Position numbers and translations under genes: made by a program
DNA from: a virus
Reading direction: 5' to 3' (one strand)
Length of the DNA stretch: 64,000 nucleotides
Virus record (IMG/VR): IMGVR_UViG_3300030107_002332
Notes under the pieces: generated by a model
Database searches by the model: none
The model's input: only the letters and a program-made list of their open reading frames with translations
Told to the model about the DNA's origin: nothing
Shown: piece after piece, positions 24,856 to 34,311 of the stretch
Numbering within the stretch: position 1 is the first letter of the stretch
How the letters are laid out: every line of letters starts with the position of its first letter

Positions 24856-26340
24856 TCAATCAACTACTGAATCAGGTTTTCCATATATTGTATCCTTAAC
24901 AAGGAGCATTTTAGTGACGTACCGTAGATTCATGTCTTGTGACTCATGTGCTAATGAAGCTATAATATAGCGTCCGCTATACTTTTTGTCAACCGCAATA
25001 GTATCACCAACTTTACCTGTTGCAGGAATAGTAACATAAACACCATAACCTACATATAGATCCAGATTACCAGGTACAGTAATCTCTAATCTAATATTCT
25101 TCAAAGATTCAATACGCATCCATTGATATGCTTGCAACTCAACGAGTTGTTCATAATTCTTTTGAGGATTCTTCTTAAACTTAGGATCAAATATCTGATT
25201 AGGTAATGCAGTATACCGTATTCTCTTAGGATAGTCAAGCAAATTCCGAATACCTTTATCCATTAGAATCATTGGATTCTTATCTTTAGTAGTTCCAAGG
25301 TGAGACATCTTTGGCCATATCTCTTTATTACTATACCTATAGGTATCAGCAGATATATCCTGACTAACATCAGTTCCTACCTTAGAGTTACCAAGTGTAG
25401 TTGGATCAAAACCTATACTATATCCAGACCAAGTACCATGCCTTAATCCCATAAGATAACTTCTTTCATCAGGAAAAACAACAGATTTAATTTTCCATTG
25501 ATCTTGATCACCATCATCTATACTCTTAGGAACATATTCATAAACATGTAGTTGTGCATCACCAGTAGAAAAATTAGTCTCTGCCTCTGCAGATTGATCG
25601 TTAACCTTCTCAATCATACCATCTATAGACTTAAAATGATATCCCAAGGCATTTTCAAAGAACGCATATGCATTCTGCAATGTCCCACCTTTCTTTGCCT
25701 TACGAATAGTACGCTGACCTATCCAATAGATAAGATCAAATGGTCTCCAGTTTGATGCTATAAATTGATGATTATTAATAGACTCATTTTCATCAGTAAA
25801 TACTTTCTTCTTTGAGTAAATATAATCTTTACCTGTCAATAACTTTTTAACAATAGCCTCTGCCTTAGTACCAGTTTGTGTAGCTAAGTATGCTGTCTTT
25901 TTACTTAAATCCTTTCTCTTACCAAAAATTACTTCACTATGACCAAATATATTAACAGTCTCATTCTTTAAAAATTCATCAGTAGTAGCCTGAACTATAA
26001 AGATATCAGACAATTGGTTAGATCGTGAACGATCTTGTATATCATAAGTTCTAAAGAAATAACTCCTATCTAACATTTGACTTCTAATATCCAACCTCCA
26101 CATCTCAGATCCTGTCAAAACAGCTTGAAGACCTAATGAATCTCTAATAGCAAAACTTGCTTGAATAGCACCATGAGTAATACTTGTATATACTTCCCAA
26201 CCACCTAAAAATTCATTAAAATTCCAATTACCATCAACTTCAACACGCTTACCATCCCTATAAATTGAGAGGGCAAGTTCAACTTCACCTACCTGATTAG
26301 GTTTAAGAGACCCTCTTCTATTTTGAACAGCACTACTCAT
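24856..26340 (-). CDS. Baseplate hub protein (gp27-like by position)
   Basis: 494 aa; YAFFEN..GYHFKSID and ITVPGNL..VG motifs of hub proteins; synteny. Confidence 0.6.
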   Translation of the reverse strand: MSSAVQNRRGSLKPNQVGEVELALSIYRDGKRVEVDGNWNFNEFLGGWEVYTSITHGAIQASFAIRDSLGLQAVLTGSEMWRLDIRSQMLDRSYFFRTYDIQDRSRSNQLSDIFIVQATTDEFLKNETVNIFGHSEVIFGKRKDLSKKTAYLATQTGTKAEAIVKKLLTGKDYIYSKKKVFTDENESINNHQFIASNWRPFDLIYWIGQRTIRKAKKGGTLQNAYAFFENALGYHFKSIDGMIEKVNDQSAEAETNFSTGDAQLHVYEYVPKSIDDGDQDQWKIKSVVFPDERSYLMGLRHGTWSGYSIGFDPTTLGNSKVGTDVSQDISADTYRYSNKEIWPKMSHLGTTKDKNPMILMDKGIRNLLDYPKRIRYTALPNQIFDPKFKKNPQKNYEQLVELQAYQWMRIESLKNIRLEITVPGNLDLYVGYGVYVTIPATGKVGDTIAVDKKYSGRYIIASLAHESQDMNLRYVTKMLLVKDTIYGKPDSVVD

Positions 26341-29336
26341 GAGAATAAACCTTTCAAAGGATTACTAAAAGAATTTAGCATACTAACTGCTGTGCCCCAT
26401 ATACCACGATTACCAGCACTTCCACCTCCTCTTGATCTTCCACCACCACCTCCACCAACTATTCTTGGTTGATTTGCACTAGCAAGAACTGTCTGAGCCT
26501 GAGCATTAGCTTGTTGTGCCCAACTACGACTCTGTGAATTTTGTTTTTCAACTGCTGCTAATGCTTCTTGGACAATTGCTAATGTCCTCTTATTCATTTG
26601 CATCCTTGCTTTATTTCTTTCTTCTGATGCTTTCTTAATTCCTCTAGCATCAGATGTTCTATTAATAGTAACACTTGGTTGACCTGTTTTTCCCCTTGGT
26701 AAATTAGGAACAGTATTATTATTCATTGAGTCAATTTGTCCATCATTTTCCCTTCCACTAATGTTAGCAGGATTATAAGTAGCACCTGGAGAAGAAGCAT
26801 ACCTTCTATTACTTGTTTCAGTTCCTATTAAATCTGTTGCAGATTTATTACCAGCAGTATTAAATACATGGTTACCAAACTTAGTCCTATTAACATTCTG
26901 GGATGGATCATCCTTAGCACTAACACCTCTAAACCCAGTAGAAGCAAGTAATTTATTGATTGTAGTATCATCATACCCTGCTGCTCTAAGTTGATTCCTA
27001 AACCTTTCTGTATTCAATGCTAAATCTATAGCTTTTTGTGCAGAAGCAAGTTGTCCAGCGGACCATTTGTTATTAATAGAACCATCTCTAGTTGGTTGAT
27101 ATTGATTATCTCCATAAATGATATCTGTAAGACTTTGCCCTGCTGACATAAACAAACCTGGATTACCACCCTGTCTAATAAGTGCTTGTCTCTGTAGAAC
27201 AGATCTTGCTACTAATGCCATTCCAGTCACACCCTCACCTCTTGCCTCAGCAAGTACTAAACTTCTAAGAAGATTCAATTCATTATTAGACATCATTCGT
27301 CCATGATATCCTTCTGCCTTTCTCTTTCCTGGATTCTGCATAAAATTACGCATCATCTGACGTAATCTATCACCACCAGACCCATCAGGATCATTTTTCT
27401 TTAACTTAAATAAATCCCAAACTTCACCAGTACCACCCCAAGCAACAGGACCACGAGCACCTGCAGCTTCTGCTTCTGTCATTACATTCTTACGTGTAAC
27501 ATCCTTTCCTTCCATTCCCCAACCCATACCAACTTTTGCTGCCTCTTGCATCATACCAATTAATTGAGAAGATGTAGGAGGAAATTCTTCCCAACCTTTA
27601 CCACCCATAGCAGCAATACCAAGAGCTATATTACTAGATCTACCTCGTTTCGCTACATCACCATAGTCTATATTCTGTGTCCTCTTACCACTACCTCCAA
27701 ATACCGTATGATACCTACCCTTAGTATTGGAATAGTCACCACCAGTCCAACCCAATGTTAATGTTTTATTACCATCCTTCTTATTATTAGCTAATAATCC
27801 ACCAGCATCACGTTCGAGTCCACCTAAATGGTAACCCATCCTCTTAGCTTCATCAAGACGATTCATCAAAAGATTAGGATTATTTCTTGTAGCCTTAGTA
27901 TCAAAAGGAACAATGTATGCTGAACCGTCACTCTTTCCTCTTGCTACGTACTCAGTACCATGTCCGATAAAATCGATATTGGATCCATCAAGACTAACAG
28001 GATATCCAGACTGAGGTCCACTTATCCATCCTCCTTGAGAGAAATTATTTAAAAATCTACCAAATGCTTTTTTCTGAGTTCTCTGATCTTCAGGAACTCC
28101 CATTTGGATTTCATGAATCTGCTTTTTAAGATTTAAAATTTCACGATTAGTCCTAAGATTATTAAGATTGAAGGTATTCCCTATTAATGACCATAAACTT
28201 TGATCCTTTACTGAATCTGAAAGTTCCTCAATTTTTTCATTTAACTTATTAACAGTCTCTAAATCTTTTTCACTAATCTGTCCTGTTTCTACTTTATAGT
28301 CAAATCCTTCTAAGTTTTTTTCATCAGCACCAGGTATCTTTCTACCTTTCCACTTACCTTCTCCTTTTAATCTGTCTATCTGATTATTAATTTCAGAGAT
28401 CTCATTATTGAGATCCATCCTTCTCCATAATTCATGCCAACCAAGTTTATCACGTTCCGCAATTTTCTTTGCTTTCTCCTCTTCCAGTTGCTTTATAGTA
28501 TTCATTAAACCAACTGCTTCCACATTTTCATCTACTTTATTGGTAGAACTAGACTTAGCCATCCAAGGGAATAACTCAGTTAACCAACCACCAGCAGTGA
28601 ATAATAGTCCAGCAGTAAATAAGAATCCAATAGGACTAGCTGCCAAGGCTGCAAAATCTTTTGCTGCAGCAACAAGACCAGTCTTAACAAACTTTCCTAT
28701 CGCTACTAACTCTGCCTTAGACTTTGCAATTCTAAAAGGATTCAACCACATCATTGGCACTGCCAACGTTGCCCATCCTATTAAAAATTGTGCAAGTCCA
28801 CCCAACCTTTCCATCCAAGTGGCATCATCTCGAAGCATATTATACAGACCATCAAGAGCATTAGTGACACCAAACTTAGCCCAACCAGCAATTGCTTTAA
28901 AGACATGTCCTAATGCTACAAGAAATGTTTCGACCTTTTTCTGATTATTAGGATCAGCAAGCCATTTCATTATCGGAAGGACAACAAAAAGTCCTAATAA
29001 ACCTCCAAGTAAATTAAGTAAAGACTCTAAGAATCCAGGTATCCTACCCTTCTTTATCTTGTTCAGAAAACTGAACATACTTTTCCTCTTTTTAGGAACA
29101 GTATAATCAGGTTTAAATTTTACTCTATTCTTTCTCTCTTGTTCTAACCTTGCAAGGTTAGTCTTCTTAATATCAACTACAACACCTGCAATAGAATTAA
29201 CCGTCTTACCAAGATTATTGACTGCAGCAACATTAGACACCATAGTCCTAACCATAGGATTAGACTTGGTTGAAGTAGCACCCGAAGGTACAAACTTATA
29301 CAGATCAATTTTAGAACTTTTCTTTACAGTTGCCAT
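26337..29336 (-). CDS. Tape-measure/hub-like protein with cell-wall hydrolase (SleB-like) and amidase-like domains
   Basis: Helical/hydrophobic N-half; LVLAEARGE...V...ADNQY-like DNQYQP...FGNHVF SleB-type motifs. Confidence 0.65.
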   Translation of the reverse strand: MATVKKSSKIDLYKFVPSGATSTKSNPMVRTMVSNVAAVNNLGKTVNSIAGVVVDIKKTNLARLEQERKNRVKFKPDYTVPKKRKSMFSFLNKIKKGRIPGFLESLLNLLGGLLGLFVVLPIMKWLADPNNQKKVETFLVALGHVFKAIAGWAKFGVTNALDGLYNMLRDDATWMERLGGLAQFLIGWATLAVPMMWLNPFRIAKSKAELVAIGKFVKTGLVAAAKDFAALAASPIGFLFTAGLLFTAGGWLTELFPWMAKSSSTNKVDENVEAVGLMNTIKQLEEEKAKKIAERDKLGWHELWRRMDLNNEISEINNQIDRLKGEGKWKGRKIPGADEKNLEGFDYKVETGQISEKDLETVNKLNEKIEELSDSVKDQSLWSLIGNTFNLNNLRTNREILNLKKQIHEIQMGVPEDQRTQKKAFGRFLNNFSQGGWISGPQSGYPVSLDGSNIDFIGHGTEYVARGKSDGSAYIVPFDTKATRNNPNLLMNRLDEAKRMGYHLGGLERDAGGLLANNKKDGNKTLTLGWTGGDYSNTKGRYHTVFGGSGKRTQNIDYGDVAKRGRSSNIALGIAAMGGKGWEEFPPTSSQLIGMMQEAAKVGMGWGMEGKDVTRKNVMTEAEAAGARGPVAWGGTGEVWDLFKLKKNDPDGSGGDRLRQMMRNFMQNPGKRKAEGYHGRMMSNNELNLLRSLVLAEARGEGVTGMALVARSVLQRQALIRQGGNPGLFMSAGQSLTDIIYGDNQYQPTRDGSINNKWSAGQLASAQKAIDLALNTERFRNQLRAAGYDDTTINKLLASTGFRGVSAKDDPSQNVNRTKFGNHVFNTAGNKSATDLIGTETSNRRYASSPGATYNPANISGRENDGQIDSMNNNTVPNLPRGKTGQPSVTINRTSDARGIKKASEERNKARMQMNKRTLAIVQEALAAVEKQNSQSRSWAQQANAQAQTVLASANQPRIVGGGGGGRSRGGGSAGNRGIWGTAVSMLNSFSNPLKGLFS

Positions 29337-29365: not shown

Positions 29366-32107
29366 TTATCGATTCATCAGACGTTGAGCAGCATCATATA
29401 CTATAACTGCCTTTTCCTTAACTTCAGGAGCAATAACAATTTGATCCTGTAATATTGGCATGATGATTGGCATAATTTCTATTGGTTCTTCAGATAGAGC
29501 AACAGATTTAGCTCGTTCATATAGACTCTTACCTTTATCAATTGCTCCAAGTGTTTCAGGACTAACTCCCAACTCACCTGCAAGTTCTTTCAATCCAGTA
29601 TATTGATCACCACCACCAAGTAATCCCATTGCAGACTTATATATTCCTCCCAATCCTTGTCTATCTGCAAGTTTACCTATTGCTTGAGTAGGAGAGAATT
29701 GACCTGAGAATATATCACTTATACCAGGAAGATTGGTAAATCCAGGTATACTTGCTGCAAAGTTTGACAGACCAGGGAACATATTACCAAGACCACCAAG
29801 ATGATGCTGTTGCATCCAATCACCAAACTGTGCCATACGACCACCTTCACCAAAGAATCCCCCTTCACCAAAGAGTCCTCCTGGTTTAGTCATACCAGTC
29901 ATATGACCAAGTTGACTTATAGTACCACCCCATCCTTGACCAGTCAGTCCACCATAAACACTCTTACCCAATTTACCAATATCCGTCTGCATGAAATTAT
30001 TAAATCCAGACGAGATACCACTAACCCAGTTAGAGACACCAGTATAAGCATTAGCAACTCCTTGACCAAAACTACTCATACGCAAGTTCATTAACCAATT
30101 TGGTGTGTTTACTACAGACTGAGCAGTAGAACCAATAGCAGCAAAGTTACCTAAACCACCTGCAATACCACTAACTGCTTGCATAATGTTGCCATTAGCA
30201 ATTCCCTGAACACCATTGATAATAGCCATTGGTATTTGCATACCAGGAATGAATGATAATGCCGTGTTTACTATAGGATTACTTGCTACCTTACCAACAG
30301 TTTCAACAACACCACTAACTGCCTTACTAACACCATTAAATACACCACTAGCAACTTTCTTTACACCTTTCCATATTCTACCAAAGATAAACCCTGGTAA
30401 CTTATGTAATCCACCTTTACCCCAAAGTTTCCACCAAGGTTTTTTCTTTGTTTCCTTCTTCTTCTCAACAACTTTTGTATCCTTCTTTTTAAAGAGGTTA
30501 CTAAACCAATTACCACTAGATTTCTTCTTAACAGGAGGTGGATCCTTCTTCTTCTCTTCTTTAGGTTTAAAGAGATTTGTAAACCAATTACCACTACTAC
30601 TATCGTGCTTCTTCTCCTTCTTCTCAATTATAGGAGGTACTTTTTTATTATCTAACTTACCCTTCTGTTTTATAGCATACTCAAGATCATGCTCAAGCAT
30701 TTCAAGTCTTCTATCATCCCGATAGTTCTTACTACCAGAAGTAAATCCTAAATGCCACCACGGAGGTTTTGATTTACCTAGTTCAAGTTCTACCTTCTTC
30801 CTACGATCATTGATAACAGCTTCAACACCATGTTTCTGTATCTGATCTCTAACTATCTTCTCACCAAGTCTATCAAAACCCCACTTAACACCAGCATCAA
30901 CAGTCATATCAGCGAGAATACCAATACCTAATGAAGCACCACCTTTTGCAACACCCTTACTAACAGAACTTGCTCTCTTCCAAGTCAATGGATTTTTAAG
31001 AACGTTCTTTCCTTTAGTTAAGGTAGACTTGAAAAGATTAGTTAAATTTGCTTTAGGTTTTGCTTTAAAAAGCTTTACCTGGTTTTTTGTTGTCTTCCAA
31101 AGTTTATCCCACTGTCTCTTCGCACCATCCTTTAACCATTTATTACCTTCTTGCCAGAATTTCCGTTTTGTTTTTATCTTAAGATTTGAACTACCTTCAA
31201 CACTTGGAGCTCTACCTCTTGTTGCCCCAAACTTACCATCTTTAAGTTTAAGATTTCTTGGTTTAATACCCTTTGAGGATTTCTGACTCTTTAACCTTTG
31301 CTTATTCGCACTTGTCTTCGACTTACTACTATCAGCACTAGAACCTGCACTAATTCCTTTTGCATTTGGTTTACTCTTAAGAATAGTAGTAACATTCTTA
31401 AGGAACCAACCAATAGATCCTGATATAAACGCTAAGGAAGATAATGGATTGAATATCATTTGCAGCACTGCTGCTGCTTGGACCAGATCCCATAATCCTG
31501 AGATTCTGTCTCCTATGGTACTTTCTTTCCCTAATAACTTAGCATAACCACCAATTATCTTCTTCCCTACTAACCAATTAAAGAAATCATAAAACTTCTT
31601 AGTAACAAAATGAAGTTTATGTAAAAATACCTCTAATTTCTTTTGATTCTCTTCATCAGCACACCACTCCAACATCTCCTTGATGATTGCAATGGATCCT
31701 AATTTTATGAAGAATTCAAAAATGGGCATCATTGCCTGTGCCCAAAGTGGAAGTGCACTCTTCAATGCATTTCCAACCTTAGACTTACCCAACATCTTCC
31801 GCATTCTTGACTTACTGACCTTCCCCTTATCGGCTTTACTAAGGTCGTTTATCTCTGCATCTTCTTCTGCCTGTTGGTCTCTCTCAAATTGTGCTCTTTT
31901 ACGTGCCTGTTTTGCTTGAAATTGATCTTCTTTAAGACGTGATATCTCAATATTTTCAATATCTTTAATGACATTACCCATACCAGTCAGGGTTTTGCCA
32001 AGACGATTATATCCTAAGACTAATTTTCTAGCTACAAGGGATCCATCACTGGCATTATCTTGTGCCATGCCAGGATTGATAAACTTGTATGCTTCGATCT
32101 TAGCCAT
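29366..32107 (-). CDS. Tape-measure-like protein (gp29-like by position)
   Basis: 913 aa, helical, G/A-rich repeats, N-terminus paralogous to 26337-29336, follows gp26/gp51. Confidence 0.6.
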   Translation of the reverse strand: MAKIEAYKFINPGMAQDNASDGSLVARKLVLGYNRLGKTLTGMGNVIKDIENIEISRLKEDQFQAKQARKRAQFERDQQAEEDAEINDLSKADKGKVSKSRMRKMLGKSKVGNALKSALPLWAQAMMPIFEFFIKLGSIAIIKEMLEWCADEENQKKLEVFLHKLHFVTKKFYDFFNWLVGKKIIGGYAKLLGKESTIGDRISGLWDLVQAAAVLQMIFNPLSSLAFISGSIGWFLKNVTTILKSKPNAKGISAGSSADSSKSKTSANKQRLKSQKSSKGIKPRNLKLKDGKFGATRGRAPSVEGSSNLKIKTKRKFWQEGNKWLKDGAKRQWDKLWKTTKNQVKLFKAKPKANLTNLFKSTLTKGKNVLKNPLTWKRASSVSKGVAKGGASLGIGILADMTVDAGVKWGFDRLGEKIVRDQIQKHGVEAVINDRRKKVELELGKSKPPWWHLGFTSGSKNYRDDRRLEMLEHDLEYAIKQKGKLDNKKVPPIIEKKEKKHDSSSGNWFTNLFKPKEEKKKDPPPVKKKSSGNWFSNLFKKKDTKVVEKKKETKKKPWWKLWGKGGLHKLPGFIFGRIWKGVKKVASGVFNGVSKAVSGVVETVGKVASNPIVNTALSFIPGMQIPMAIINGVQGIANGNIMQAVSGIAGGLGNFAAIGSTAQSVVNTPNWLMNLRMSSFGQGVANAYTGVSNWVSGISSGFNNFMQTDIGKLGKSVYGGLTGQGWGGTISQLGHMTGMTKPGGLFGEGGFFGEGGRMAQFGDWMQQHHLGGLGNMFPGLSNFAASIPGFTNLPGISDIFSGQFSPTQAIGKLADRQGLGGIYKSAMGLLGGGDQYTGLKELAGELGVSPETLGAIDKGKSLYERAKSVALSEEPIEIMPIIMPILQDQIVIAPEVKEKAVIVYDAAQRLMNR

Positions 32108-32297
32108 TTTGTCGTGCTTGTTGCTCTTTTGCTCTTCGCTCTTCCTCTTTGAGGAATTGCATCAACAAATTCACGTATATCTCCTTTTCAAAAGGAATCA
32201 TATTATCGACATAATCTAAGTGCCACTTATGATGATGCATTAAAGCGAAATTACCTTCATAATAAGCTTGTAAATTGGTATGAAGTAGAGCTATGCG
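32100..32297 (-). CDS. gp51: gp51-like baseplate assembly segment lacking its own start, probably reached by -1 frameshift from gp26
   Basis: Open frame RIALLHTNLQAYYEGNFALMHHHKWHLDYVDNMIPFEKEIYVNLL...; first ATG only at 32240; absent from ORF track. Confidence 0.7.
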   Translation of the reverse strand, partial: RIALLHTNLQAYYEGNFALMHHHKWHLDYVDNMIPFEKEIYVNLLMQFLKEEERRAKEQQARQNG

Positions 32298-33007
32298 AAA
32301 AAACTCGCTAGTCCCTCCAATGTTACATCACTTTCAACACCTGTTTTAGGGTTCTTAACCTTAACAGTATGTGATAGTTTAGGCATAGTTTCAAAGAAAT
32401 CTTGAACAGCCATAAACTGCTTACTACTTAAGTTTTCAAAGAATTCAATAATTTCAGACTTAGGCATATCAGTACAATCATATACCTGTTCTGGATCAGT
32501 GATAGTTTTTACACAATCTGCTGCCATTTCAAATACTTGATCAGCACCAAAGGAATCATCATCTCCAATGAAATTCATTTCAACGAAAGTTGCCATACTG
32601 GGATATTGCATCTCCATGACAATCTCATCAGATAATCTAACCTCTGTCTTATGCTTTTTATTCTTTTGAATTTTAATATCAGCCAAAGGTATCTTAACAG
32701 GAACTTGAGTCTCATTATCATCGGGACAAGTTAGACTGAGTTCAACACTCTCTCCAACAGATTTTCCACGAATTTGAAGAAACAAATATTCAATATCAAA
32801 AGTTGCCAAATCATCCACTGTTGTTAAATCAGTGCAATTTGTAATAATATCTTTAATAGCAGTAACCAAATCTGACTGTTCACCAGTTTCGGTTGCTAAA
32901 AGAAGCAACTTTTCTTCTTTTACAAGAAAAGGTCTATAATTTACTACCTGTCCAGTAGACGGTAGTTTCATTTTGTACTTCGGTACGTTTAATTTAGGTA
33001 ATGCCAT
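32291..33007 (-). CDS. gp26: Baseplate hub assembly protein
   Basis: RPFLVKEEKLLL, DIEYLFLQIRGKSVGE, TCP, GLASFF end. Confidence 0.9.
   Translation of the reverse strand: MALPKLNVPKYKMKLPSTGQVVNYRPFLVKEEKLLLLATETGEQSDLVTAIKDIITNCTDLTTVDDLATFDIEYLFLQIRGKSVGESVELSLTCPDDNETQVPVKIPLADIKIQKNKKHKTEVRLSDEIVMEMQYPSMATFVEMNFIGDDDSFGADQVFEMAADCVKTITDPEQVYDCTDMPKSEIIEFFENLSSKQFMAVQDFFETMPKLSHTVKVKNPKTGVESDVTLEGLASFFA
32297..32303 (-). other. Candidate -1 slippery heptamer T TTT TTC
   Basis: X XXY YYZ pattern in gp26 frame two codons before TAG; -1 frame continues into gp51. Confidence 0.65.
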
Positions 33008-33034: not shown

Positions 33035-33880
33035 TCAAGCCATATTAGAGGAATTTGTAAAGAAGTCACCAACATATACTGTTCCGTAATTATCAATAAA
33101 GTTATTAATACTTGCCGTACCAGCTCCATCCCAGTAACTACTATTGGGAATTTCAACCCATTGTCTAACATCGGGCTCCTCAAATCTAACTTCAGGATAG
33201 AATCTATATCGTTCATAATAGAATGATACACCAATAGTCATTAGAGATGAAGAAGAGTTATTTAACTGAGCACTACCAATATTATATGGATAACAATTTC
33301 TCAACTCCCACATGGCAGTAACCTTATTCATCCTTCCAAAATCATTAAAAAATTTCTTATCAATATCATCCTGATGTCCTGAACCAACTCCCCATGCACC
33401 AACCTTCTCACCACCACCTCTTTCATACTTGTAAATTCTTATATGAGGTGAAACATAATTATTATAAAATTCTGTATATTGATTAGCATCATTAGCTATT
33501 TTACTAACCCATCGTTCAAAGAACAACCTTGTTAGTTGTGATTCTGGCATTACGAAGTTAACTTGGAACTGACTAAATGCAGATCCTGTAGCATATTTAA
33601 CAGGAGATCCCACATTAATAGCCTGACCAGAAGTAACTTGCTTACTTGGAAGACTTACACTCGCTGCATAGAAATCCAAAAGTTTTTCTAAGTCACCAGT
33701 CTCTGCCTGTAAATCAGCACCTTGATGTGGTCCCATCCCTCTAGAGAAGATAGGAGGTGAAGCAAACCTAAGAGAAAATAAGTTAGTATAACTCGGAGTA
33801 TTATCTTCACCCCGCATGAAAGCCTGAAACTCCTGTAAGGAGTTATATCGTGCATATTGCCAATGAGGTGCTTGTGCCAT
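33035..33880 (-). CDS. Tail tube initiator-like protein (gp54/gp19 family)
   Basis: SVSLPSK, W...I, CYPYNIG...L, VSFYYE tube-fold motifs; synteny. Confidence 0.6.
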   Translation of the reverse strand: MAQAPHWQYARYNSLQEFQAFMRGEDNTPSYTNLFSLRFASPPIFSRGMGPHQGADLQAETGDLEKLLDFYAASVSLPSKQVTSGQAINVGSPVKYATGSAFSQFQVNFVMPESQLTRLFFERWVSKIANDANQYTEFYNNYVSPHIRIYKYERGGGEKVGAWGVGSGHQDDIDKKFFNDFGRMNKVTAMWELRNCYPYNIGSAQLNNSSSSLMTIGVSFYYERYRFYPEVRFEEPDVRQWVEIPNSSYWDGAGTASINNFIDNYGTVYVGDFFTNSSNMA

Positions 33881-34311
33881 TAGATCCTAAGTTCTTTTTC
33901 TGTAATTAACATAAATTCCATTCCATAATCTTTACAAAACTCAGTTGCTGCTTTCCACTTTGCTTGATTAACACCCCAAGTGAAAACTTCATTAATATAT
34001 GATTTAGTCATTCTTTTTTGAGTTTTGGGTTCTTTAGTTTGCCTAAAAGGTTTAACTTCAACGATATATTTCTTACCTCTCACCTTTACATAAAAATCAG
34101 GGTAATATCTATGTCGTTTACCATCAACAGGACTGATATAAGGAATAGCAATCTCTTCACTACCCCATTCCTCTACTACTGAGCGAGAATCACACCACTG
34201 CATAAATTTATACTCCCAAGACGACCTAAAAACTACATTGCGGGAATCCCCTTTGTACTTAGAGGGTAATCTAAGGCGATACTTACCTTGTAAATATCTT
34301 TTTTTTCGCAT
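33880..34311 (-). CDS. gp4: Head completion nuclease
   Basis: KYKGD...RSSWE, WGSEE, RYYPDF, EVKP, NQAKW. Confidence 0.9.
   Translation of the reverse strand: MRKKRYLQGKYRLRLPSKYKGDSRNVVFRSSWEYKFMQWCDSRSVVEEWGSEEIAIPYISPVDGKRHRYYPDFYVKVRGKKYIVEVKPFRQTKEPKTQKRMTKSYINEVFTWGVNQAKWKAATEFCKDYGMEFMLITEKELRI

Follow-up and report, generated by a model that had tools for sequence, protein, structure and literature searches.

A probable -1 frameshift joining gp26 to a gp51-like extension in a T4-like cyanophage and its relatives

The window analysed here, 64,000 nucleotides (nt) of an uncultured marine T4-like cyanophage (IMG/VR record IMGVR_UViG_3300030107_002332), carries a gp26-like gene at 32291..33007 whose product, 238 amino acids (aa) long, belongs to the baseplate-hub assembly chaperones of T4 gp26/gp51 type. 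The evidence presented below indicates that this gene very probably contains a selected -1 frameshift site close to its 3′ end, by which gp26 is fused to a gp51-like extension encoded in the -1 frame, so that one gene would give a short and a long form of the same protein. The evidence lies in the anatomy of the junction, its conservation among relatives, the homology of the extension to T4 gp51, the complementary gene-copy numbers of T4 and heptamer-bearing phages, and a chaperone-like fold.

The gp26/gp51 junction and its conservation

All window features named here lie on the minus strand. The gp26-like gene ends AGT TTT TTC GCA TAG, giving the protein end ...GLASFFA, and the proposed -1 shift site is the slippery heptamer T TTT TTC at 32297..32303, a run of six Ts (32303-32298) followed by a C (32297); read with the gp26 codons, the heptamer is in X XXY YYZ register. 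The gp26 stop codon, TAG at 32291..32293, lies one codon 3′ of the heptamer. In the -1 frame an open reading frame (ORF) opens at CGC (32297-32295), reads RIALLHTNLQAYYEGNFALMHHHKW...QNG and closes at TAA 32102-32100. This gp51-like extension of 65 codons plus stop (32100..32297) is the predicted C-terminal part of the long form, for which a length of 237 + 65 = 302 aa is predicted. None of codons 1-19 of the -1 ORF is ATG, GTG or TTG, and ATG first appears at codon 20 (32238..32240), which is the usual annotated start of 'gp51' and is not conserved. The extension runs up to a 913-aa tape-measure-like gene (29366..32107), whose ATG (32107-32105), inside ATGGCTAA, overlaps the extension stop. 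A preliminary description of this DNA had given the gp26 end, the position of the heptamer, the 65-codon -1 ORF, its 19 start-less codons, the stop overlap and the 302-aa product in the same way, and each was recovered unchanged on re-reading.

Both parts of the junction belong to recognizable families. The 238-aa protein matches Pfam PF12322 T4_baseplate over profile positions 2-219 of 219 (E 1.6e-75, 254 bits against a cut-off of 24.5) and phrog_150 'baseplate hub' (E 3.2e-86). For the -1 ORF the match is to the gp51 family, phrog_634 'baseplate hub assembly catalyst' (E 8.7e-28), and it starts at residue 2 of the ORF, just past the T run and 19 codons before ATG 32240. The heptamer is not rare by itself: TTTTTTC occurs 13 times in the window, where 16.5 +/- 3.6 copies are expected, which is a chance frequency. 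The case therefore rests on the conservation of the heptamer and of its register across relatives.

Junctions were gathered from GenBank phages and from two IMG/VR scans, yielding 118 distinct junctions, and eight distant phages were read by eye besides. TTTTTTC was present in 114 of the 118, TTTTTTT in three (HTVC008M, C48C1 and phiM19) and neither in one (Salmonella phage Det7); wherever it was present (117/118), the heptamer stood in the X XXY YYZ register. The phages that bear it range from 100% to ~26% gp26 identity and include Kyanoviridae, the pelagiphage HTVC008M, phiM19, Pootjesviridae, Menderavirus, OLIVR6 and RSP15, together with the non-Tevenvirinae Straboviridae PX29, AS-szw and V05. 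Reading by eye found T TTT TTY or T TTT TTG in RSP15, RHph_I1_9, AS-szw, V05, D491s and OLIVR6, and no heptamer in two of the eight distant phages, both of them Ackermannviridae-type Vibrio phages. Conservation of the heptamer and the -1 register, which the preliminary description had proposed to look for in cyanomyoviruses, was found there and well beyond that group.

Conservation at the site reaches the nucleotide level. Among 112 distinct junctions, entropy is 0 at all seven heptamer positions, and other synonymous third positions average 1.3 bits. The codon 5′ of the heptamer may be AGT, TCT, GCT, GAT, AAT or GGT, which code for five amino acids and end in T throughout. The 0-frame codon 3′ of the T run is free, with 18 different codons seen, and the -1 codon at this place is CGN in 104 of 117 junctions. 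The gap between heptamer and stop is one codon in 113/117 junctions, none in three and two in one. By codon position, entropy is 0.54/0.33/1.33 in frame 0 on the 5′ side of the heptamer and 0.78/0.53/1.29 in frame -1 on the 3′ side; for the 19 codons before the ATG, read in frame -1, it is 0.87/0.60/1.31. Third-position variability thus swaps frame at the heptamer, indicating that purifying selection on the protein changes frame exactly there.

As a control for the amino acid requirement, we used a second invariant Phe-Phe pair inside gp26 (F204 F205), which is spelled TTC TTT in 97 sequences, TTT TTT in 48, TTC TTC in five and TTT TTC in one. The spelling TTT TTC therefore occurs in 1 of 151 internal pairs versus 114 of 117 at the gp26 3′ end. 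T4 gp26, which lacks the heptamer, spells its homologous Phe-Phe GAG TTC TTT. Since the internal pair and the T4 pair are spelled otherwise, a Phe-Phe motif alone does not explain the heptamer.

That the slip takes place, how often it does so, that it happens on the ribosome and not during transcription, and what the two forms bind are inferred from this arrangement. Most ribosomes would read AGT TTT TTC GCA and stop at TAG, producing the 238-aa short form. In a minority, the tRNA-Phe on UUU in the P site and that on UUC in the A site would slip back by one base on U UUU UUC and re-pair with UUU UUU, and reading would resume in the -1 frame at CGC. This would add 65 residues (RIALLH...QNG) and produce a 302-aa gp26-gp51 fusion ending at the start of the tape-measure-like gene. 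The predicted tryptic junction peptide of the fusion is TGVESDVTLEGLASFFR, the 0-frame product ending ...SFFA, and a further predicted fusion peptide, encoded 5′ of ATG 32240, is IALLHTNLQAYYEGNFALMHHHK. The short and long forms would share a common chaperone body and be the counterparts of lambda gpG/gpGT and T4 gp26/gp51, with the helical tail of the long form presumably contacting another hub or tube component.

The heptamer U UUU UUC belongs to the class H_HH.U_UU.Y, which ranks with the most efficient -1 motifs of E. coli; in this class the A-site tRNA re-pairs cognately (PMC4066793). Two elements near the site may help the shift: the 0-frame stop one codon past the heptamer, and GGAGGG, a Shine-Dalgarno-like hexamer read directly at 32313..32318, 9 nt 5′ of the heptamer, which we regard as a tentative stimulator. 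The Glu codon at the GGAGGG site is GAG in 78 of 112 junctions (70%), compared with 28% among other gp26 Glu codons.

T4 gp51 and the chaperone-like fold of gp26

In T4, gp26 (208 aa) and gp51 (249 aa) both serve as chaperones in hub assembly (Leiman et al. 2010, PMC3004832, Table 2), and gp51 is needed for assembly yet is absent from the particle (PMC3004832). Window gp26 belongs to the same Pfam family as both T4 proteins, residues 1-201 of T4 gp51 matching PF12322 with an E value of 3.9e-52. The last 49 aa of T4 gp51 match phrog_634 positions 57-103, and the window extension matches positions 58-119 of the same family. When a profile of 59 extensions was compared with T4 gp51 by hhalign, extension residues 10-48 paired with T4 gp51 208-245 (E 4e-4, at a probability of only 35%), and in a multiple alignment T4 gp51 runs beyond the G-x-x-F-F motif that is the end point of every gp26. 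BLASTP of T4 gp51 against the extension returned just a spurious N-terminal match, the homology being seen by profile methods. T4 gp51 thus consists of a gp26-family body and a C-terminal tail homologous to the -1 ORF, and on these alignments it is collinear with the predicted frameshift product, as T4 gp26 is with the short form. The analogy to lambda G/GT that had been drawn earlier for gp26 and the gp26-gp51 fusion gains further support from this collinearity.

The T4 genes are arranged differently. Genes 26 and 51 of T4 are separate, divergently transcribed neighbours, whereas the window has one gene plus a -1 ORF; the T4 tape measure gene, encoding gp29, lies two genes after gene 51. Gene copies are complementary: T4 has two copies of PF12322, and PX29, Syn33, HTVC008M, phiM19, AS-szw and V05 have one each.

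Two further arrangements were seen among relatives. In the IMG/VR locus L134 (2167-2241), and at the same place in L135-L141, a gp26-gp51 long form of 295-299 aa is encoded as a single zero-frame ORF. The junction in this lineage reads AAT TTT TTT TTT (T10), the -1 frame stops right past the run in 7/8 loci, and a 153.8-kb contig of the lineage has only one PF12322 gene. Here the arrangement is the mirror image of that in the window, and the short form would be the product of a slip. Apparent in-frame gp26-gp51 fusions, e.g. ...GLASFFACFLLHTNL..., were also found in the proteins P0002, P0003, P0004-P0006 and P0040 from ENA assemblies. Some of these sequences start within gp26 or continue through later stops as well; the fusions may be natural or may stem from indel errors in homopolymers. 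P0002 was used solely as a proxy sequence for folding.

The AlphaFold model of window gp26 has a mean predicted local distance difference test (pLDDT) score of 86.7. The model of a related 308-aa long form has a mean of 86.3, and its extension forms helices at residues 232-299 with pLDDT 62-88. For both models, the top three matches among 48,161 PDB representatives were 2ob9, 3klu and 3fgx, which are the phage tail assembly chaperones of known structure (PMC9603447). The respective Z scores were 6.8, 6.1 and 6.2 for window gp26 and 7.0, 6.2 and 5.8 for the long form, with 83-84 residues aligned; a Z of ~7 falls in the middling range of the tool, below its confident range. The match to 2ob9, the HK97 tail assembly chaperone, covers 83 residues at a root mean square deviation of 3.4-3.8, and 2ob9, 3klu (YqbN) and 3fgx (Rbstp2171) all align to residues 1 to ~89, the next matches having Z 4.8. 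Foldseek against the PDB returned no match at E <= 0.001, and sequence searches of solved structures returned no match for gp26, T4 gp51 or a long form. The structural comparison with tail assembly chaperones that the preliminary description had suggested thus placed the three known chaperones at the top for the gp26 N-domain. The models are supportive rather than conclusive that this domain has the tail assembly chaperone fold.

Other possible routes to gp51 and points against a frameshift

The position of start codons in the -1 frame varies among relatives. On the 5′ side of the heptamer, none of 117 junctions has an ATG, GTG or TTG in this frame, and in nine of them a -1-frame stop abuts the T run (e.g. 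TAG TTT TTT in S-RIM8); a -1-frame start 5′ of the heptamer is ruled out. On the 3′ side, the first ATG, GTG or TTG ranges from codon 2 to codon 34 over the 117 junctions. In the clade of the window, where the ORF has 60-65 codons and is conserved from the first of them, it comes at codon 19-34. The preliminary description had named ATG 32240 and an ATA as possible gp51 starts that would do away with a fusion, and neither is conserved. Met20 of the -1 ORF is Ile (ATA) in P-SSM7 and S-CAM8. An ATA start overlapping TAG is ruled out as well, as the xTA simply follows from the stop codon, and ATA, CTA, GTA or TTA is seen at this place among relatives. The absence of a conserved gp51 start, as first noticed in the window, extends to the relatives.

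Annotation follows these start codons. Because the position of the first start varies, GenBank gives P-SSM7 a 'gp51' of 31 aa and Syn33 and S-RIM8 one of 45 aa, and annotates none in S-CAM8 or in Aeromonas phage AS-szw. A joined or ribosomal-slippage coding sequence (CDS) was found in none of the GenBank records inspected. We conclude that 'gp51' is mis-annotated in the inspected records, and the same pattern is likely in the further cyanophage genomes, numbering in the hundreds, that have this junction.

It is unlikely that gp51 is a separate small protein, with no fusion, for which ribosomes reinitiate or initiate either at ATG 32240 or close to the stop at some non-canonical codon; the T run would then be kept just because both frames need Phe-Phe. 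This explanation draws on the many relatives with an ATG 2-7 codons past the heptamer, often as TGATG or TAATG, which are found in clades with ~50% identity to the window and in several groups outside the cyanophages, and on the annotation of gp51 as its own CDS in GenBank. Relatives without the heptamer appear to use such a start. These are the Ackermannviridae-type phages Det7, D532 and 207E48.1, and in D532 (L148:1270-1480) and 207E48.1 (L149:1265-1475) the ATG that opens the gp51-like ORF overlaps with the stop of gp26 as TAATG. In Det7 (L052:2290-2490) the conserved gp51-like residues begin 5′ of the annotated start, with no start codon visible. A separate gp51 is at odds with the clade of the window, in which the ORF is conserved from codon 1 and the first start comes far downstream of it, and with the lack of any conserved start in the codon overlapping the stop. 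It also leaves the invariant NNT TTT TTC unexplained: a gp51 starting past the stop needs no Phe codons in the -1 frame, so dual coding cannot account for the heptamer. Finally, in T4 gp51 the extension is joined to a body like that of gp26.

The same gp26-gp51 fusion could arise by transcriptional slippage, in which RNA polymerase adds one U on the T6 run and the edited mRNA is then translated in the ordinary way. The site is a homopolymer run, and it is longer in some relatives, with T7-T8 in HTVC008M, C48C1 and phiM19 and T10 in one lineage. Longer runs of this kind (T7-T8, T10) are more prone to polymerase slippage, a subject reviewed in PMC5009743. Six Ts are short for productive slippage by bacterial RNA polymerase, however, and the conserved element is a textbook X XXY YYZ heptamer, from a class for which efficient -1 shifting by ribosomes has been measured. 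Sequence data do not separate the ribosomal and transcriptional routes, but the transcriptional route is the less likely of the two, and as an account of this junction we consider it very unlikely.

That AT-rich codon usage together with a conserved Phe-Phe gave rise to the heptamer incidentally, the -1 ORF being translated otherwise or not at all, would suit the chance frequency of TTTTTTC in the window, the share of TTT among Phe codons (70%) and the commonness of T-ending codons, but it is scarcely credible given the spelling of the internal Phe-Phe (1/151 versus 114/117) and the protein-level conservation, codon periodicity and phrog_634 match of the -1 ORF.

Several observations nevertheless weigh against the proposed frameshift or narrow its reach. 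The junction sequences are not phylogenetically independent. RNAalifold found 0 pairs over 36 sequences when a conserved downstream stem-loop or pseudoknot was looked for, and the downstream fold of the window itself has a z of -0.94. The absence of conserved RNA structure would fit a low-level, largely motif-driven shift as described for lambda G-T (PMC5009743). The Shine-Dalgarno-like element is enriched but not invariant, and the dependence among junctions applies to this enrichment too. An ATG, GTG or TTG lies 2-7 codons past the heptamer in ~70 of 117 junctions, and in clades with a near-heptamer ATG separate gp51 initiation may occur alongside the slip. In the Ackermannviridae-type phages a free extension is apparently workable, so that covalent fusion is not universally required; Det7 and D532 each have one PF12322 gene and a small gp51-like ORF, and the copy-number pattern is not general to heptamer-less relatives. 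To these may be added the middling fold scores given above and the identity of the 913-aa downstream gene, which is only tape-measure-like by size, position and a weak PHROG match.

Neighbouring genes and known chaperone frameshifts

The gene directly 5′ of gp26 (33035..33880, 281 aa) is tail-tube-like, of the gp54 tube initiator type. It matches phrog_45 'tail tube' (E 5e-52), with weak Pfam matches to Phage_TTP_2 and gp19, and the gene at this position in PX29 and HTVC008M is annotated gp54 or baseplate tail tube initiator. On the 3′ side, the preliminary description had called the next gene tape-measure-like and overlapping with the -1 ORF. The overlap of stop and start was borne out, and tape-measure identity comes by a weak match only, to phrog_58 'tail length tape measure protein' (E 1.1e-5). 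The 913-aa gene matches phrog_790 with an E value of 5.8e-99 and lies outside the PHROG of T4 gp29, which is phrog_1283. The order of genes at the locus is tube-like gene, chaperone, tape-measure-like gene.

The 913-aa gene (29366-32107) and a 999-aa gene (26337-29336) form a tandem of large genes with clearly related N-termini, and their matches fall in overlapping PHROG families (phrog_790, 1200 and 2588). A weak similarity to cell-wall hydrolases (Pfam Hydrolase_2, E 0.012) was also seen for the 29366-32107 gene. The two genes resemble paralogous tape-measure/lysin-type proteins, and RefSeq relatives carry the label 'endolysin'. At 33880-34311 lies a gene for a gp4-type 'head closure' protein of 143 aa, which matches Pfam Tn7_TnsA-like_N, an endonuclease fold, with an E value of 3.9e-21.

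The nearest known system is lambda gpG/gpGT. A conserved -1 frameshift in the chaperone genes of lambda and other long-tailed phages was reportedly described by Levin et al. in 1993 and by Xu, Hendrix and Duda in 2004, and is summarised in PMC5009743. The G/GT type is characterised by two products in a fixed ratio, each of them required for building the tail but missing from the finished virion, with the tape measure bound by the short part and the tube protein by the extension. The window resembles lambda in having an X XXY YYZ heptamer near the 3′ end of a chaperone gene, a -1-frame ORF 3′ of it that has no conserved start, and short and long forms that would share one body. Its position, between a tube-like gene and one that is only tape-measure-like, may correspond too, as may the fold of the gp26 N-domain, whose model matches solved tail assembly chaperones at middling scores (Z 5.8-7.0). 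The window differs from lambda in protein family, since gp26 belongs to PF12322 and is 238 aa long with extra domains, whereas gpG is roughly 140 aa and of another family. The window extension is only 65 aa, its 0-frame stop comes one codon past the site, and its heptamer is U UUU UUC where that of lambda is G GGA AAG.

P2 E/E′ offers another parallel, from a contractile-tailed phage with a -1 shift in the chaperone gene 5′ of the tape measure (PMC5009743); the protein family is unrelated at the sequence level, which is stated without a P2 sequence comparison here. The junction also shares features with E. coli dnaX, which makes tau and gamma. The Shine-Dalgarno-like element of dnaX lies ~10 nt 5′ of its heptamer, close to the 9 nt of GGAGGG in the window, and the T10 lineage of L134-L141 would, like dnaX, make its short form through the shift. 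In contrast, dnaX needs a strong downstream hairpin, of which none is conserved at gp26 junctions, and its shift truncates the product where that of the window would lengthen it.

Taken together, these comparisons support assignment of the gp26/gp51 junction to the already known kind of tail assembly chaperone frameshift. A 2016 review describes this -1 frameshift as conserved in long-tailed phages 'except T4' (PMC5009743), and full-text literature searches, which did not cover subscription-only papers, found no published report of a gp26/gp51 frameshift. We give an even chance to a broader reading, in which gp26/gp51 is the tail assembly chaperone pair long missing from the T4 superfamily as a whole, and the required short and long forms are obtained by three or more interchangeable means: by a U UUU UUY -1 shift in most lineages, including the globally abundant cyanomyoviruses; by a duplicated gene with an in-frame extension in T4 and its close kin; and by the zero-frame T10 form in L134-L141.

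If this is true, gp51, T4's 'essential protein of unknown function', would be the equivalent of gpGT, linking the tape measure or hub to tube initiation, and both gp26 and gp51 would gain a concrete role in hub and tail-length assembly. The tail-chaperone frameshift is among the most conserved recoding events in viruses, and the 'except T4' exception to it would vanish. T4-type phages would share the two-form chaperone logic, the usual route to it being frameshifting and the route in T4 itself gene duplication.

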